A stretch of DNA of 64,000 nt. Origin: Spirogloea muscicola. Its lineage: Eukaryota. The DNA lies in the NCBI GenBank assembly GCA_009602725.1, contig WELB01000023.1, forward strand, positions 733,977-797,976. The letters run 5' to 3'. How positions within the stretch are numbered: position 1 is the first letter of the stretch; each line of letters starts with the position of its first letter. The translations under genes and the position numbers were made by a program. Of this stretch, positions 3,920 to 55,835 are shown in pieces. The notes beneath the pieces are model-generated. The model saw only the letters and a list, made by a program, of their open reading frames with translations. It was not told where the DNA came from and searched no databases.

Positions 3920-4099
3920 GGCGGCGCCGCAGCCGCCGCAGCGCGAGGGGTGCCGAGCAAGTTGTGCACTGCGCCGCGCGGTGAGGACTAGGAGGCGAGT
4001 GACCAAGCGAAGGAAAGCGGCTTCTGATATGAAAGAAGCGGAGCTCGGGTTGGCCAGGTGGCGGCGCGCCACCGGCGAAGCTGACCCGGCCCCTCTGCG

Positions 4100-7000
4100 A
4101 ACGAGAGGCGCCTTTCCGGCGGCCAGTCTTTCTGACTTGCGGTTACTATCGAGAGGTTACGGAGAGAAGGCGCGCGGGGCGCATGAATTGAAAAGGGAGG
4201 CCAATTCAAGCCAATACATTGTTCAGGCAGAGTCGAGTGCAGACAAACTTACTGAGCGATAGTTCCTACGGGCAGTATTTTGGGAAAAGTACTTTGGGAA
4301 AGCGCTTGTCGGCCCCTGTTTAGCAGGGGTTACTGAGTAGTTAGTAGCTGCTTTGTTTCTTCTTGTGTGCTTCTTTCTTAGTGCTTCGCCTTAGTGCTTC
4401 GCCTGGCCCCCTTCTTCTTCTTGGAGGTTGTCGAGTGCCGCCCGGTGTTCGGGCATCAATTAGTGACCTCTATGTGCTGACTCGTGGTTACTGAGCGGGT
4501 CAGCTTAGCAGCAGGGTGACGTACATTTGTCAATGTGCTTACCTTTGTACTTGGCCACACATGGCCCTCCATCTCTTAATACACACTCCTTGCGTTCAAC
4601 AGCGTCGAGCGCAGCGCCATCGCCGAGGAGCTGCGAGCGGCCTTCCCGTCCCTCATCCCCTTCTTCCGCCTGGGCTACGGCCAGCCCAGCGACCTTCTAT
4701 GCCGGACAGGGAGTGGCGAGATGGAGACGCTGCAGTCGAGGACGGGCACACGCCAGGCGGATCCTCTAGCAGGGTTTTTCTTCGCGCTGGCTCACAGCCG
4801 CGCTCTCAGGGCCACTGCGGCGGCGCACCCCGGCGTCCTTCTGCCGTCCTACGCCGACGACACCACGCTCGTCGGCAGCCCGGGGGAGGTCTCGGCAGCC
4901 ACCGTCACCTTCCAGCAGCAGCTGGCCGCCCTTGGCATGACCATCCGCCCGGAGAAGTGTACCGCGTGGTCGCCGCGTGTCCTCCCTGCCGCCTTGCCCC
5001 TGCCGCCTGGGTGCCAAACTCCCCCAAGCGGCCTCACCATCCTTGGGGTCCCGTTCGGCACGCCAGCGTTCGTCGACGGGCAACTGCGCGTCCGCCTTCA
5101 GGAGCACCTCCAGCCAGTGGCCCGCCTCCCCGAGCTGCAGGACATGCAGCTGGCGCTTGCCATGCTCAATCGATGCATTGTGCAGCGTCCTCACTACTTG
5201 GCGCGGACGACCCCTCCCTGCCCCGCGGTGCTGGCGGCCTACACCACATTCGACGCGGGGGTCATGGAGGGCGCGGCGGCCCTCATCCGCCACGATGGCT
5301 TCCTTGCCTCGTCAGCCGCTACGCTCCAGGCCACACTGCCCCCTGGCCAGGGCGGCCTCGGCTGCCGCTCGCTCGCGCGCGTCTGCAGGCCAGCATTCCT
5401 CGGCAGTTGGGCACAGGTCGCCACGTCGGTGGCGCAGCGCTTCCTCCATGATGGGCGGCCCCTGCTGCAGCAGGTTGTGGAGGAGGTGGCGACTGGCTCG
5501 CTGCCTTTCCAGGAGGCCCTCCGCTCAGCCCAGGACGGGTTACTCGCGGAGCATCCGGCCCTTGCAGAGAGCGTGGTCCCCTTCGCTCACCTCGCCCACA
5601 CCTCCGACTCGCAGGCGCAGGCGCGATACATGGCTGCTGTGGACAAGGCGACGTTCACGGACACGCTGCAGCTCCTCCCCGCAGGCGACGTGCGCGGCCG
5701 TGCTCGGCTGCTGTCGGCCGCCTCCCCCGGCGCGGCAGCCTGGCTCTCTGCGCTCCCACTGTATGATGCGCTCAGGCTGCCGGACGAGCTGTTCCGCACG
5801 GCCACGCATCGCCTGCTGGGCCTCCCCCCGCCCTGCCTGCTGGGCGTGCTGCAGTGCGAATGTGGGGAGCGGTCGACGGACCCGGCGGAGCTGGCGGCGC
5901 ATCTCCTCCGCTGCGCCACTGGAGGCGAACGAACAGCTGCGCACGACCTCTTGCGTGATGCTATGTTCGGGATCTTTCAGGAGGCGGGCTACACGGTGGC
6001 GATGGAGAACGCCTCGGTCATGCCCATCCTCGAGAGGGCTGACGGACACCATACGCGTCGTGTGGACCTGGTGGCGTCCACGCCGGGAGGTGGCGCGCGG
6101 ATCATAGCCGATGTAGTCACCACCGATGTGGTCGACCGCTCCAACCTGGGGCTCTCTGCCTCGCGGGCCGGCCACGCTGCCTCGAAGGCCGCTCGCTGCA
6201 AGGCGGCCAAGCACTCCGACCACCCACCTGCCGACGAGTTCGTCCCCTTGGCGGTGGACGTGCACGGGGCTCTTGGGTCCCAGTGGCTTGACCTATTGGC
6301 TAGGCTTGCGCGGCGGGCTGTGTCCCGCAGACGCGGCGAGCCAGCCGACTTCAACGCCGCGGGCTCGTGGGCTCAGGTATATCGGATGCGCCTCTCTGTA
6401 TCCCTGCAGCGGTCCATGGCCCACGCTCTGCATCTGCGAGCTGGCCGTGCTCTCGCTGCGGGCTCTGGCTTTCGTCAGGGTGATAGCTTCCCGGCAGCTA
6501 GTCTGTCGGATCTGAGGCTCCTCACTCGTACTTATTGAGTGATCCATCCTCCCCCTGTTTTACCATTGCATCCTCAGGCCCCTTTGTAGCTGCTCACCGC
6601 TCTTAGGCCCCTCTGAACCTTTGTGAACTCTTTTTGGGCTGGCTTTTCGCAGCCCTTGCCCCCATTGGGAGTGCCACTTCTCTCTTCTTCTTGGGCTTCT
6701 TGTACTCTGCTCATTCTTTTTTGGGCTGGCTGTTCCAGCCCCTATCCTCAATGGCCGAGCTCTTTCTTCTTTTTGGGCTGGCTTTGTCAGCCACTCTTCT
6801 CTACGGGCGCGCTCTAAGTCAGGCCTCCGGCTTTCGTGGCGGCGCTCCAGCTCCCCAAGTTAGCTTGTCAGATTTGTTTGTGCTCACCCGTGGGTACTAA
6901 TGTCATCTTAGGTACCTTAGATTAGGTCTCCGTATTATGTAGCATTGTTTAGTCTGCACTCGACTCTGCCTGAACAATGTATTGGCTTGAATTGGCCTCC

Positions 7001-7131
7001 CTTTCAATTCATGCGCCCCGCGCGCCTTCTCTCTACGGGCGAGCACATCCGCTTGTCGGCCCCTCAGGACCTTTCTTCTCGTCATTGGCCTCCCATTCAT
7101 TTTTATGCGCCCCGCGCGCCTTCTCTCGTCA
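4100..7131. repeat. Nested cluster of retrotransposon 3'-end fragments (at least 4 families) in the PITH/LIP divergent intergenic region
   Basis: Peptide termini ASLSDLRLLSRGY (about 4123-4160), LSRGY* (about 4319-4336), SDLYVLTRGY* (about 4462-4494), SDLRLLTRTY* (ends 6538) and SDLFVLTRGY* (ends 6900). Direct repeats 4303-4317/7050-7064, 4413-4424/6683-6694, 6798-6809/7030-7041 and 7077-7084/7124-7131. Confidence 0.9.
4592..6682 (+). mobile_element. 5'-truncated CRE-like non-LTR retrotransposon (family A): RT, CCHC zinc knuckle, restriction-like endonuclease (RLE)
   Basis: Open frame 4592-6538 begins mid-RT at AFNSVERSAI and contains GTRQADPL (QGDPL-like), YADD, LGVPFG, GGLG, CECG-x10-HLLRC...HD, RRVDL...ADVVT...KAAKH and FVPLAVDVHGALG. 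An in-frame TAA lies just upstream at 4577. 3'UTR is about 145 nt. Confidence 0.92.
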
Positions 7132-20914: not shown

Positions 20915-23215
20915 CGGAGAATTGAGTGTGTATTGGGTGCTGGAAGGTCTGAGTGGCTAACTACAAAGGCAAGCACATTGACGAATGTACACATAGGGGG
21001 TCCCAGCGAGCCCGTATTTCTGCTGCCGGGGGAAATCCCGTCAGCGGTGACGCTGACCCAGCCGCTGACGCTTCGGGCCGCCTGCCGAGCTGAGCGACTG
21101 CAAGACTCAGATGGGCAATGCGCGCATGAGATGGAAGCAAACAGCTCGTCCGTTGTAAGGCAATGGCTGTGAGAGGCCAGCCCAGAGGAATGTACAAGGG
21201 CTGCAAGGGCAGGAAGCCGCTAAAAGCAGGATTCTATTTGCCGTGACTCCTGCAAGTGGGCTCTCAATAAACTCTAGTCAGCAAGTGCGGATCAGAGTGA
21301 GTAGAGAGCGAGAAGCGTCCCCCTGAGGTGAAAGGTAGGCCAAGCCGAGCACGTCCAAGCGCTGCGCACTTGACTTAGTCGCGGATCTCGGTAACGAGCA
21401 TGATATCCGACACCTTTATTCGCCTTCATCACTTGACACTTCCATGGAGAAGAGAGAGCGCGATTCGCGTATATTGAAAAGGGAGGCCAGTTGGGGCGAT
21501 GATTATGACGGCAAGACCCGAGGCACCCCACGTCCCCTCTGCAGCCTGCCATGACGGCCTTCAAGCCGGGACCGGCCCCCTGGCCAGCCCCACGCACCTG
21601 CGCTGGCTGTGGGCCTTCTGGCTCGGAGGCCCGTGGCCAGCCCAGAAGTGGCTGTGCAGCCCATCCTGCTGCGACCATCGCCGGCCTGCTACGGTAGCAC
21701 CGGCCAACACGCCGTCACTGAACGATGCGCTAGCGGCCATGCACAGAGCTGTGCTCCCTCTCCAAGCCCAGGACCCTTGGATCATCACCATCCTTGAGCT
21801 TCAGCCAGGCAGGCCTGCGCAGCCAGTCGCCTACTCGTAGGCCCAGCCTAATGCTTGTGTAGCCTGCTCGCAGAGCCCTGAAACGTCAATTTCATATCCA
21901 GCACAACTTCGAGCTCGTGCCATTGCCGTCCATGCATGCATCGTTCACTTACAGCGCGGCCAGGCCAAGACGCAATTATCTGGTAGCGCAATGAGTGAAA
22001 GTCTTTTCGTCCGCCCAGATGCGTGGGCCACTGCAAGAGGTGATGCGCACCAGGTCGACGTGCCATGTGCCCGTCAGCAAGTCGGCACGGTGCCGTGGAC
22101 CTCTGCACGACTTGGTAGGCAGCCTCTTGGAATAGGCCGAAGGTGCCGTTGCAATAAAGCACCGTAATCGGCTATTGCTCGTGGCCATGCTGCGCAGCGC
22201 AGCATGTGCGCCGCAGTATAGGGTGGACGATTGCGCTTCTACAAGGACCTACAACGTGCTCATTGCGTGCTCACCACATGGAGAACGTTGAGGTCGCAGG
22301 CGAGATGGAATTGAGCCTCTTGCTTATAGCGGGCGGGTGGCAAGTCCCCAGCCTGTGCCCCCTGTACCGTAATCCTAAAGCTCCAGGCTTGGGTTGGCAA
22401 GGAAGCCTTATAGATAAGGCTATGCTGGACGTAGCCTTAATGAGGAGCGAACACTTTTAGAACGATGTAATTCTTCCATAAGGGCGATGGCAATGTCGTG
22501 CCGCCCATTAGACTGAACCAGGTCCAAAGAGGTCAGAAGGCGAGCACCACTCAGGAAAGAAAGGGACCACTAAGGATGGCGACTCACCTGATCAGCAGCC
22601 GCAAGTCGGAATGTCTAGCAGCCAGACAACAAGTAAGCTCTTCTGAAGGGGCGATGGCCAGGAAAGGCCAGCCCAAAGGGAGTTGACAAGGTCCACAAGG
22701 GGCCTGAAAGAATAAGGTAAACCAAAGACACAGCTCCTTACAAAGTAAGTAACAGCTTTCTCAATGTAAGACAGTAGCTGTGAGAGGCCAGCCCAAAGAA
22801 AAATGACTCTTCCAGTAGAGGGCGATGGCTGTCATTGAAGAAGTGGCACTCTCAATGGGGGCAAGGGCTGCAAAAAGCCAGCCCAAAAAGAATTGACAAA
22901 GGTTGTCATTGGCCAAAGCATAGAAAAGAAAGAAGAAAACCCAAAGCCCAAAGGAATGAACAAGATCGGAGAGAAACGCTCTTTCCATGTAAGGCAGCTT
23001 TTGTGAGAGGCCAGCCCGAGGAATGTACAAGGGCCGGAAAGGGCAGGGCTGTGAATGGCCCGCGAAAAGAGAGAAGCTCTACTCAAGGGGGCGATGGCTG
23101 TGGAAACAGGCCCAATGCAGTAAAACAAGAGAAGCAGCCCCACGGCGGGCGAGGGCTGTAAAGGAAATTGCCGCCCATGTAGAAGTGGCTCTCCCGCTAT
23201 AAAAGCCAGCCCGCC
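20915..23215 (-). repeat. Cluster of CRE-like retrotransposon fragments, including a decayed endonuclease-region copy and a tandem array of 3' ends
   Basis: Family-B 3'UTR at about 20915-20992. SDPHLLTRVY* at about 21263-21300. Degenerate FGLFQEA...ADGH..R.DLV at about 22050-22145. SDLRLLIR at about 22585-22612. Repeated GGCTGTGAGAGGCCAGCCC-type units at 22640-23215. Confidence 0.8.
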
Positions 23216-23379
23216 ACGAGAGACCTCTTGGAGCGCCAATAGAACGTCAATGGCGTCGGGTTCGTGGCCGCACCAGCCGCCGCCGCCGTTTTCACGGTTC
23301 TTTCCACCGTTTCCATCCCAGTACAGTACTTGTCCACTACCGGTCATTCGACAAAGCTGATTTCATCGCGTAGGAGCTG

Positions 23380-23408
23380 GCCACGTGTAGACACGTCAAC
23401 CGCCACGT
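23380..23408. promoter_or_regulatory. Triple ABRE/G-box cluster
   Basis: GCCACGT (23380), GACACGT (23390) and GCCACGT (23402), which read ACGTGGC/ACGTGTC on the minus strand, about 360 bp upstream of the ATG at 23768. Confidence 0.55.
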
Positions 23409-23767
23409 CGGACGGTCCACCACCGCGCCCCGTCTGTCAAGCACGCAATGTGGGCGCCGCCGTCGTTGGCGAGGCGGCGGCTTCCTCTGGCCCTCAACGG
23501 CACTAGCTGGGAGCTGATAGATGGGAGCCCCGTCTTGTTAGTGGCGCCCACACTGCGTCTGCGTCTGCGCTTGCCGCGGCCTGAGGCACCCGCCTGTGCG
23601 GCACTCTTGCGGTGAGGTCCTCGTCGGCGTGGGCCGGCCCTGCGCCTGGCGTGCGGCTCTGCGGCGAGGCTGCGCTTGCGGGCTGCCCAGCGGCAGGAGC
23701 TGGCGTGGTAGCCACGCCGGCAGCGACGCGGAGGGTAGGCGTGGTAGTGGGAAAGCAGAGGGTAGGC

Positions 23768-39861: not shown

Positions 39862-40275
39862 GCGGAATGGAGTGTGGATTGACTGATGGAGAAAGAGCTC
39901 GCCCATTGAGGATAGGGGCTGGAACAGCCAGCCCAAAAAAGAATGAGCAGAGTACAAGAAGCCCAAGAAGACGGGGGCCAGGCGAAGCACTAAGGCGAAG
40001 CACTAAGAAAGAAGCACACAAGAAGAAACAAAGCAGCTACTAACTACTCAGTAACCCCTGCTAAGCAATCGCAGGTCAGAGAGGCTATGTTCCTGGAAGG
40101 AGGGCTCCAGTGGCCAAGTGACATGGCAAGCGTCGACAGACGTGCATGACCTGCTGCTAAGCTGACCCACTCGGGGAACCACGAGTCCGCACGTAGAGGT
40201 CGCACTAATGCCCAAATACCTGACGGCAATTGACAAGCCCTTTGTGCCACCAGCTAAAGCTCGACCAGAAGCCTA
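39862..40275 (-). repeat. Family-C 3' end nested in a family-B 3' end
   Basis: SLSDLRLLSRGY* plus UTR (about 40097-39890) is near-identical to 4319-4424 joined to 6695-6766. It interrupts the family-B UTR between GCCCTCC and ATC...CACACTCCATT. Confidence 0.85.
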
Positions 40276-42874: not shown

Positions 42875-43455
42875 AGGACGGAGGGCCTGAGTGGCCAAGT
42901 ACAAAAGCAAGCACAATATTAAATACATCACCTGCTGCTAAAGTGACCCGCACAGTACCACGAGTCAGCACGTAGAGGTCGTTAATTGATGCCTGAATAC
43001 AGGACGACAATTCACAAGCCCTCATGCCACCAGCGAAGGCTCGACTAGCTTTCTGGTGCAAAGCATGAGCCTAAAAGAATGAACAAGGTCTGCCAGGGCC
43101 GGAAGGCGAGGGGACGAGGGCGAAGGCGAAGGCGAGCAAGCGAGGGCTCTGACCAGCCAGCCCAGAAAATGGACAGGGACAAAAGTGGGATACACCAATC
43201 CCGACGAACTTCCAGAGAGAAATCAGAAGCAGCAGCTAAAGCGCGGCCTGCATCGCCTGACTCCGGAGAGCTGTTTCCCGTCGCTGACTCGTAGTTACTG
43301 AGCGGGTCAGCTTAGCAGGGTACGATTCTCCAAGACGTCAGCAAGTGGGCGCTCCATTAACCTCTGGTCAGCAAGCGAAACCTCAGCTTTGCTTAGCAGC
43401 AGGTGATGTACATCTGTCAATGTGCTTGCCTTTGTACTCGGCCACTCAGGACCTC
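42875..43455. repeat. CRE-like 3'-end fragments in both orientations upstream of the peroxiredoxin
   Basis: HQKASRAFAGG...NDLYVLTRG (minus strand, about 42880-43061). GCTGACTCGTAGTTACTGAGCGGGTCAGCTTAGCAG (plus strand, about 43283) resumes at about 43391 after an inverted insert. Confidence 0.8.
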
Positions 43456-50374: not shown

Positions 50375-50930
50375 CTTTCGAGGCCCCTTCGGACCATGTC
50401 CGTTCTCGTCGGGCTGGCTTTCCACAGCCCCTCGCCTTCTCTCCTTGTACAGTATTGGCATGAATTGGCCTCTCTTTCATGCGCCCCGCGCGCCTTCTCT
50501 CTTGGATTAGCTTACTTTACATTTATTGGCGCGCAGTGCCCAGTGGGCCCCTCGCGAGAGGACCTGGCCAGGTGACATGGCCTTCTGGGACCGAGAGCCC
50601 GTTTGCCGTTGGCAGTTGCACTAGACGCTGGCGGTCACCAATGGCAGCCTTCCGGCCCTTCTTCCGGCCCCTTCGGACTTTGTCTCGGCTTCTGGGCTGG
50701 CCTTTCACAGCCGTCGCCCCCGTTTGAGAAGACCGTTCTTCCGATCCTTTTACTGGTACTGGCGACGAGCGTCCTCCAGCTCACGTGCCCTGTTCGTGCT
50801 TCCCAGCTTGTGCTGGCTTGTCACCAAGTACACCTTACAGGTGGCTGTGAAAGAAGAGAGCTCTTGTGAAAGGCCAGCCCCAATTGAGAATGGACAAGGT
50901 CCGAAATGGTCGGAAGGGGCAAACGACCAA
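50375..50930. repeat. CRE-like 3'-end units upstream of SGF29
   Basis: GGGCTGGCTTTCCACAGCCC at about 50411; family-D end ATTGGC...CATGCGCCCCGCGCGCCTTCTCT at about 50454-50501; further units at about 50694 and 50843-50882. Confidence 0.75.
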
Positions 50931-53834: not shown

Positions 53835-54388
53835 AAATTGGCCTCCCTGTCCTTTGCTTCTCTCTCATTTGCATGCGCACCGCGCGCGCCTTTCTTCCAA
53901 AGTGGGCGAGGGCTGTGCAAAGCCAGCCCGAAAGAGGGAAGGCGCGCGGGGCGCATGAAATGAAAGAGAGGCCAATTCAAGCCAATACATTGTTCAGGCA
54001 GAGTCGAGTGAAAGAGAGAGTGACTATTCCAGTAGAGGGCGATGGCTGATTGGCCACCCCATGAACAGAAATTGACAAGGTCCGAAGGGGCCGTAAAGCT
54101 CAAAGCTGACTTAGGTCCAGCTTAAGGAGGGATCGTGTATTAGAAAGAAATGTAGGCCAAATGGCCAGGTACAAAGGCAAGCACATCTAAAAATCTACAT
54201 AACCTACAGCAGATTGACCCGCTCAATAACCACGGGTCAAAACATAAAGGTCACTACTCGATGCATGAATACTAGATGCCAGGAACGGAGCCCTTCTGCC
54301 ACCTACTAGAGCTCGCCCAGCTTTCTGGTGCAAGGCACTAGCCTGAGCACGCTGCAAACAGGCCGAAACTCGACGTCGCAAGAGCGAC
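53835..54388. repeat. CRE-like 3'-end cluster between GDCH and aldolase
   Basis: Family-D end at 53937-54009 flanked by GAAAGAG (53930-53936/54010-54016). Family-B-like LRRRVSACLQRAQASALHQKAGRAL...SDLYVLTRGY* on the minus strand at about 54388-54223. Confidence 0.85.
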
Positions 54389-54491
54389 NGAGCTTAGAGA
54401 CCATCAAGCCCTTTCGCCAACCCTTTCTTACCGCCCCGTCTCGTACCTCAGTTGCCGGAGCATCCGCCGCCGCCGCCGCCGCCGCCAACGC

Positions 54492-54537: not shown

Positions 54538-55835
54538 ATGTCTTGCTACGTCGGGAAATATGCTGGTGAGCAGCGCAGCCCTGGCCGCGGCGAACTCGCG
54601 CCGCCATCCGCGGTGCAATCGGCCGCCTCCGCCGCCGCCCCATTGCGTCGCAAATGCTGGTTGTCTCGGAGACGCGACTGCCATTGGATTGCCTTCACGC
54701 CCTCGACGTAAAGCAAAGCTAAATAGGTCCTCCGAAGCGGATGCGGCCCACTGAATCGCCTCCTCGGATGCTGCACCGGACGCCGCAGAGGAGCTCGTCA
54801 AGAATGCCAAGTACATCGCGACGCCCGGGAAGGGCATCCTGGCGGCGGAACGAGAGCACGGGGACCATTGGGAAGCGCCTGGCCAGCATCGGCGTGGAGA
54901 ACGTGGAGGCCAACCGGCAGGCGTTGCGCGAGCTCCTCTTCTGCACGCCCGGTGTGCTGCCGTTCCTCAGCGGCGTGATCCTGTTCGAGGAGACGCTGTA
55001 CCAGAAGACCATGGCGGGCAAGCCGTTCGTGGACGTCATGCTCGAGGGCGGCGTCCTCCCGGGCATCAAGGTGGACCTGGGCGTCGTGGACCTGGCGGGC
55101 ACCAACGGCGAGACGACGACGCAGGGCCACGATGGGCTGGCCGGCCGGTGCGCCAAGTACTACCAGGCGGGCGCGCGCTTCGCCAAGTGGCGCGCCGTGC
55201 TCAAGATTAGCGACTTCGAGCCGTCGGAGCTGTCGATCCAGTTGAATGCGCAGGGCCTGGCGCGCTACGCCATCATCTGCCAGGAGAACGGCCTCGTGCC
55301 CATCGTGGAGCCCGAGATCCTGGTCGACGGCAGCCACTCGATCGAGAAGTGCGCGGAGGTGTCGGAGCGCGTCCTGGCGGCGTGCTACAAGGCGCTCAAC
55401 GAGCACAAGGTCCTGCTGGAGGGCACGCTGCTCAAGCCCAACATGGTGACGCCCGGATCCGAGGCCGCCAAGGTGGACGCCGAGACCATCGCCAAGATGA
55501 CCGTGCGCACCCTCCAGCGCACCGTCCCCTGCGCCGTGCCCGGCGTCATGTTCCTCTCCGGCGGCCAGAGCGAGGAGGAGGCGACCAAGAACCTCAACGC
55601 CATGAACCAGCTCCAGACAATCAGGCCGTGGACGCTCTCCTTCTCATACGGCCGCGCGCTGCAGAAGACCACCCTCTCGACGTGGGGCGGGAAGCCCGAG
55701 AATGTACAGGCTGCACAGCAGGCTTTCCTGGAGCGGGCCAAGGCGAACTCAGAAGCCACGCTGGGCAAGTATGGCGGCGGTGCAGGCGGTGCTGGTGCCG
55801 CTGAGAGCCTCCATGTGACTGGCTACAAGTACTAG
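54538..55835 (+). CDS. FBA: Cytosolic class I fructose-bisphosphate aldolase; apparent +1 frameshift near 54849
   Basis: [29 protein letters not shown], then after an extra [10 protein letters not shown]...GARFAKWR...VPIVEPE...[13 protein letters not shown]...GYKY*. Confidence 0.95.

Follow-up and report, generated by a model that had tools for sequence, protein, structure and literature searches.

A nest of short retroelement 3' ends in Spirogloea muscicola, probably built by successive insertions of related CRE-like families

An array of related termini

The window (the whole 64-kb stretch of Spirogloea muscicola DNA that was analysed) holds exons for aldolase, lipin, lipoyl synthase and an ABC transporter; a class I fructose-bisphosphate aldolase occupies 54723-55835 (+), mostly as one open frame. 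Retroelement pieces make up roughly 12% of the window, as measured on hand-drawn intervals. Among them is an array of short units at 22636-23214 (Table 1). Just past its 5' side, at 23585-25355 (+), are probable coding exons without a Pfam match. What may be an old ORF fragment lies at 22055-22256; it is weak (tblastn E=0.007 within the window; missed by the profile) and was left unused.

A DNA profile HMM trained on 14 termini from outside the array recovers eight units at 22636-23162, six of them at 12-45 bits and two at 6-8 bits, whereas in the shuffled-window control (n=5) the top score was 6.9 bits and nothing reached 10 bits. All eight matches lie on the minus strand, which is the element sense of the array, in agreement with the original prediction of about eight same-orientation units with a conserved core and with the orientation bias that it proposed to test. 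The plus-strand core it described is the reverse complement of the terminal motif, which in element sense consists of T-rich sequence, GGGCTGGC, N4-6, CAGCC, (A/C)TYGCC and, further on, GGAAGAGC with a short pyrimidine tail. A ninth, internally deleted unit (a) was spotted by eye only and is missed by the profile.

Contigs of run X1, among those listed, show no differences to 22300-22830 and 22884-23500, at a depth of 117-169. The sequence at 22831-22883 is common to very many other loci, and among the contigs listed no exact one spans it. Because X1 may be the window's own source sample, this match serves as a check on the assembly, not as independent biological evidence. Summed contig depth peaks at 2.7 million at unit g versus 117-145 in the flanks, a depth that is not a copy number.

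Table 1. Features of the array and of related copies, in window coordinates
Feature	Position	Strand	Evidence or remark
Further degenerate terminus	22475..22529	-	6.9 bits, equals best shuffled score; just beyond the reported range
Unit j, 105-nt terminus	22638..22742	-	74% over 81 nt to 50662-50740; 78% over 59 nt to 6605-6662
Unit i, 3' half	22750..22798	-	86% over 37 nt to 21154-21190
9-bp duplication around h+g, right copy	22790..22798	-	exact repeat of 22945-22953
Unit h, 3' half	22799..22837	-	89% over 38 nt to 54011-54048
8-bp target-site duplication of g, right copy	22830..22837	-	exact repeat of 22904-22911
Unit g, 66-nt 5'-truncated retrocopy of family A	22838..22903	-	94% to 6616-6681; 91% to 33361-33428
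8-bp target-site duplication of g, left copy (CAATGACA)	22904..22911	-	exact repeat of 22830-22837
Unit h, 5' half, C-type terminus (72 nt for h once g is removed)	22904..22944	-	split alignment against 54015-54075
9-bp duplication around h+g, left copy (CTTTGGGCT)	22945..22953	-	exact repeat of 22790-22798
Unit i, 5' half, B-type terminus	22945..22968	-	split alignment to 21139-21215
Unit d+e, B-type terminus with upstream UTR	22976..23068	-	82% over 76 nt to 21139-21213; 33.6 bits
Unit c, degenerate terminus	23070..23127	-	12.6 bits; family not assignable
Unit b, degenerate terminus	23128..23180	-	6.2 bits, marginal
Unit a, A-like terminus with internal deletion	23178..23214	-	by eye; top local match is family A
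Second nest, inserts of 2732, 2258, 220 and 39 nt	4303..7131	+	exact 15-, 12-, 12- and 8-bp duplications, respectively
X+Z insert	4303-7064		15-bp duplication
D+A insert (D at 4425-4589)	4413-6694		12-bp duplication
Family A reference, 5'-truncated ORF P0001 (652 residues)	4580..6538	+	C-terminal RT half, CCHC knuckle, restriction-like endonuclease motifs
3' UTR and terminus of family A, to which unit g belongs	6539..6682	+	sequence match
Second family A copy, ORF end and UTR, in a B-type terminus	33359..33643	-	291 nt between 9-bp repeats

The locus has the superficial look of a repeat-spacer array, and one could imagine it as a functional one, namely a CRISPR-like memory, a small-RNA locus or a promoter element for the neighbouring reading frame. 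Contigs of run X5, which is RNA by guess only, do fall on the termini, but they are restricted to the repeated termini and leave the unique junctions uncovered. Moreover, the repeats are not invariant (55% mean column identity), the apparent spacers are UTR pieces of the same elements, Rfam gave no match (none at gathering score in the window and none at E<=1 in the array), and similar nests occur at about 11 sites in the 64 kb. A functional array thus seems extremely improbable.

All eight units compared (a, b, c, d+e, g, h, i, j) score higher against a locus outside the array than against their neighbours. The margins are clear for g (110 vs 37), d+e (77 vs 43), h (52 vs 27) and j (54 vs 37); for a, b, c and i the outside match is ahead by just 3-8 points, which means little because 19 outside candidates stood against 7 inside. 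The proposal that the units are 3' ends of different retroelement families is borne out by these matches and by a terminus that follows an RT-RLE ORF (below), and none of the eight is nearer to its neighbours than to an outside locus. Assignment to a family succeeded for g (A), h (C-type), i and d+e (B-type) and a (A-like), but not for c; types B and C and the degenerate units were assigned from the terminus alone.

That the units are nearer to outside copies, four of them clearly, speaks against an origin by local tandem duplication, or by unequal exchange of a single terminus, with later divergence. Such an origin would suit units e and i, which are both B-type and 78% alike over 46 nt, but g, h, d+e and j are far closer to distinct distant loci than to their neighbours, and Tandem Repeats Finder calls no array at this locus. 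For the central units it is already contradicted by duplications that are nested, and overall we consider it very improbable.

Nested duplications

The homology of unit g to both longer copies of family A begins at 22904 and stops at 22839 or 22837, which are the edges of its duplication. Excision of g in silico restores a C-type terminus, unit h, and the best among 5050 blind splits of h against 54015-54075 breaks within both copies of that duplication. The block formed by h and g measures 146 nt, and the best blind split around it excises exactly 146+9 = 155 nt (156 with a second reference). This 155-nt excision restores a B-type terminus, unit i, which against 21139-21215 scores 66 when split and 50 when unsplit, with seven tied best splits out of 13695, all within the duplication. 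It is this coincidence of the duplications of g and of h+g with blind split breakpoints and homology edges that leads us to read the array as nested: given the exact nested duplications and the split alignments, h is a 72-nt insert in i, and g is a 66-nt insert in h and likely the innermost and youngest insert of the array. With two tails of about 70 bases lying within older tails, between duplicated target sites, the array likely grew by repeated insertion into earlier copies.

None of the outer units (a, b, c, d+e, i and j) is flanked by a secure duplication. Unit d+e has a weak 7-bp candidate and unit c a weak 8-bp candidate in a low-complexity tail; a, b and i have no candidate. Unit j was possibly inserted into the tail of unit i, as weakly suggested by a 7-bp sequence present both at 22743-22749 and at 22631-22637 (blind duplication test, p=0.21).

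Bounded inserts in the array are 66 and 72 nt long, possibly also 50, 93 and 105 nt, so the originally suggested unit length of 30-60 nt does not hold in general. The pieces of about 30-50 nt are not cDNAs: later inserts divided older tails, leaving these halves. Ultra-short cDNAs, as such, are represented by the 66- and 72-nt inserts with their exact flanking duplications, and the series of g in h and h in i supports repeated insertion at one hotspot; iterative addition at an end finds no support, since growth was nested from within and not polar. Identity to the nearest relative in the window drops outward, from 91-94% for g through 89% for h, 84-86% for i and 82% for e to 74-78% for j. This outward fall of identity and of depth from g is the gradient expected of nesting, with the relatives sampled from one window only. 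A test for a divergence gradient along the array had been proposed; the gradient is present and runs outward from g rather than end to end.

The linked open reading frame and similar nests

The terminus of family A, to which unit g belongs, lies about 100-145 nt past the stop of P0001. The RVT_1 match of this ORF (E=1.5e-6, 28.6 bits) is just below the curated cut-off of 29.6. Its motif order, C-x-C..H-x3-C..HD..E..RVD..D, with a longer C-H gap and AHD instead of RHD, agrees with the knuckle/endonuclease pattern printed for SLACS/CRE and MoTeR in the available part of PMC12857005. P0001 is without its N-terminus and is 42-44% identical over 96% to full-length-looking relatives of 1017-1068 aa; the relatives P0007, P0011 and P0013 have one CCHC-type N-terminal motif, and PF00078 alone is listed for them. 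The closest named relatives come from Spirogloea muscicola (78% over 40% of the query), Klebsormidium and Closterium, in each case as gene models. P0001 had no PDB match, the protein atlas gave only unnamed RVT_1 clusters for the element protein, and no labelled CRE reference was among the matches in protein similarity searches.

An RT followed by a CCHC knuckle and PD-(D/E)xK-type endonuclease motifs in a single ORF, together with 5' truncation, variable 5' ends, a conserved 3' end, duplications of 8-15 bp and no LTRs, is the combination that marks an RLE-type non-LTR retrotransposon. From the domain order, and from a presumed resemblance to the CRE group, the element is likely a CRE-like member of this class. 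A fixed insertion site in a multicopy host target, typical of CRE elements if not universal among them, was not seen here, the offsets ranging from about -40 to +45 around the motif. An initial LTR/PPT interpretation (Tat- or Sirevirus-like) was abandoned because no pair of LTRs is present and the ORF linked to the terminus is of RLE type.

Nine ORF ends with a common C-terminal motif in the window represent at least five families (A, X, V, W, D/C), with 32-59% nucleotide identity between families; A and X carry the GGGCTGGC-type terminus, and W and D end otherwise. No full-length element lies within the 64-kb window. Endonuclease-region ORF fragments of divergent sister families, about 30-40% identical in amino acids to family A relatives, are found at 26524-26841 (-) and 54235-54390 (-), each followed by a D-type UTR and then more termini. 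A terminal hairpin is plausible, with 82% and 93% of cells paired in two models; a covariation test of both models gave no compensatory pair and nothing exceeding shuffles, and 9 of 11 folds were no better than shuffles. A pattern scan also returned 32 metagenome loci, which were rejected as chance (0/32 with blastn or tblastn similarity to the elements).

Outside the array, exact duplications of 8-15 bp flank inserts of 39, 69, 128, 220, 291, 2258 and 2732 nt. The family X host in the second nest is split at 4419/6686 and contiguous at 39890-40067 (98%), so that one host is found both split and intact. For the family A copy at 33359-33643 the split test was mixed, one of two references breaking near the repeat; over all split tests, two of six (33k against B21; Z against X) put the breakpoints off the repeat. 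The wider nest at 4095-7131 has five levels and at least six families around a 2-kb RT-RLE fragment, and within it an inverted W terminus (4162-4247) sits at the stop codon of family V.

Two inserts in the second nest, D+A and X+Z, each hold two families head to tail under one exact duplication (12 and 15 bp). They would suit concatemer synthesis, in which the RT jumps between the 3' ends of short RNAs and lays down several termini in one event, as in the LINE template-switch chimeras flanked by one duplication that the available part of PMC2104539 describes; that units a-e and i are without secure duplications of their own would suit it as well. However, both loci are equally explained by read-through transcripts of older nests, and the own duplications and split hosts of g and h are not producible by end-to-end jumping. 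Concatemer synthesis, which the original prediction had offered as one possibility, is thus not needed for the array, and we think it unlikely.

Several smaller observations belong beside these nests. Two termini lie tail to tail, in opposite orientations, at 33010-33140, and inverted units occur at 26012-26060. A D-type 3' UTR at 43310-43399 (+) contains an unrelated 72-nt insert between 9-bp repeats, and an inverted repeat with 59-nt arms (86%) at 34550-34726 is MITE-like. At 50852-50871 (-), a terminus contains a 12-nt piece like the end of another, with a copy of the same 7-mer on each side; the piece is possibly a 12-nt cDNA, unproven because the nests show no enrichment of short near-tandem repeats (3.0 vs 2.5 per kb; the background of short 7-mer repeats is 2.5-3 per kb). 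The predicted gene models P0004 and P0006 are partly made of retroelement ORF/UTR pieces, and the fusion of such pieces to an unrelated PF00230 domain in P0006 is likely an annotation artefact. A practical effect of the nests is that predicted gene models come to include retroelement pieces.

Across the window, 21 of 27 termini (>=10 bits) lie within 150 nt of another, with 3.1 expected, and 15 of 21 do so when the focal array is left out. The clustering holds if the usable target is 4-fold smaller (p=0.0007) and weakens to p=0.04-0.05 if it is 7 times smaller (about 9 kb of the window), 7-fold being the upper end of the pyrimidine enrichment of the UTRs, in which pyrimidine 4-mers are 4-7 times denser than in the window. 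Close neighbours share a strand in 19 of 23 cases (p=0.001; the 27 termini plus 8 W and D ends) and, for the 27 termini alone and outside the array, in 8 of 12 (p=0.19). The blind duplication test on 26 termini gave a marginal and weak excess (mean best repeat 7.6 vs 6.6 nt, p=0.028), just 4 of the 26 being individually at p<=0.1; duplications were searched solely inside clusters. Their starts lie between about 40 nt upstream and 45 nt downstream of the motif, family A included, and with insertion points spread over about 85 nt there is no fixed target site in this sample.

Mechanism and comparison with known systems

We are fairly confident that the array represents a nest, made up of 3' ends from several related CRE-like RLE families and built by successive target-primed, short, 5'-truncated insertions. 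Target-primed reverse transcription is established for RLE elements, and in its ordinary form, with early abortion, it is the most likely mechanism. The element protein would bind the conserved terminal motif, a predicted hairpin, of its own RNA; its endonuclease would nick DNA with loose specificity; and the pyrimidine tail would prime, favouring the pyrimidine-rich 3' UTRs of relatives. Reverse transcription would often abort within about 100 nt, and 5'-truncated copies of about 50-105 nt would be inserted within older 3' ends or next to them. In a gene-dense genome, copies that fall into earlier inserts are likely spared by selection, and the bias toward relatives' 3' ends would then probably reflect tail-to-target pairing plus selection.

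A sharper version of this explanation has an endonuclease or zinc finger that reads the terminal motif of its own lineage in DNA, so that the elements carry their landing pad with them. The hosts of bounded inserts are mostly relatives' 3' ends, close neighbours are co-oriented, and the clustering survives both the 4-fold smaller target and removal of the focal array; in addition, most RLE clades are target-specific, HERO less so, according to the available part of PMC4640811. Against such recognition, the duplication starts are scattered around the motif, within family A too, tail-to-tail and inverted inserts exist (33073/33076, 4162-4247), as do isolated termini (662, 21140), and the 7-fold target bias nearly accounts for the clustering. 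We regard self-recognition as conceivable but doubtful. We would place no more trust in its fuller form, in which an undescribed algal RLE lineage targets its own shared 3' terminal region in place of a host repeat, abortive cDNAs of 40-100 nt seed new landing pads, and some inserts come from jumping between sister-family RNAs. If self-targeting were true, it would be a safe-haven strategy without a host repeat, and the nests would be a natural data set on how RLE target specificity relaxes or switches.

Successive insertion, for its part, makes the nests a source of a relative age order of the families. Further, inserts of 39-72 nt with clean duplications mean that copying little beyond the conserved terminal motif suffices for a complete insertion. 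Nested LINE insertion is itself already known; the algal RLE lineage is apparently undescribed, as we found no description of it or of such nests in streptophyte algae in a literature scope that excludes most subscription journals, Repbase and algal-genome supplements.

Among known systems, the CRE group (CRE1/2, SLACS, Cnl1, MoTeR, FoTeR) shares with the present element a single ORF with RT, then CCHC knuckle and REL motifs (PMC12857005, available part), and truncated copies that outnumber full ones. Cnl1 also forms arrays, which in the accessible portion of 10.1101/2021.08.11.455996 are subtelomeric and 5-80 kb long. The CRE group, however, is site-specific or telomere-associated, whereas here there are dispersed nests, tails of 40-300 nt, several families and no fixed site. 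In Ectocarpus, dispersed CRE families reach thousands of copies, according to the available part of PMC12477816. The LINE template-switch chimeras (Magnaporthe MGL; U6/L1) place two RNAs under one duplication, as at 4413-6694 and 4303-7064 (PMC2104539, as above), but they are not needed for the focal array, and read-through fits the two loci equally.

Human nested hotspots of transposable elements resemble our system in that new inserts prefer older elements (PMC2836564, accessible part); those involve other element classes, whereas our inserts are shorter and lie in the terminal ~100 nt of sister families. An algal parallel is Zepp of Coccomyxa, a LINE that accumulates as nested copies (partial text of PMC3446292), as are found in the array; its Chlamydomonas relative ZeppL is termed an L1 LINE in PMC9977147. 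Zepp, though, is one family forming one cluster of 1.5-42 kb per chromosome, in contrast to an RLE lineage of at least five families in about 11 sub-kilobase nests per 64 kb.
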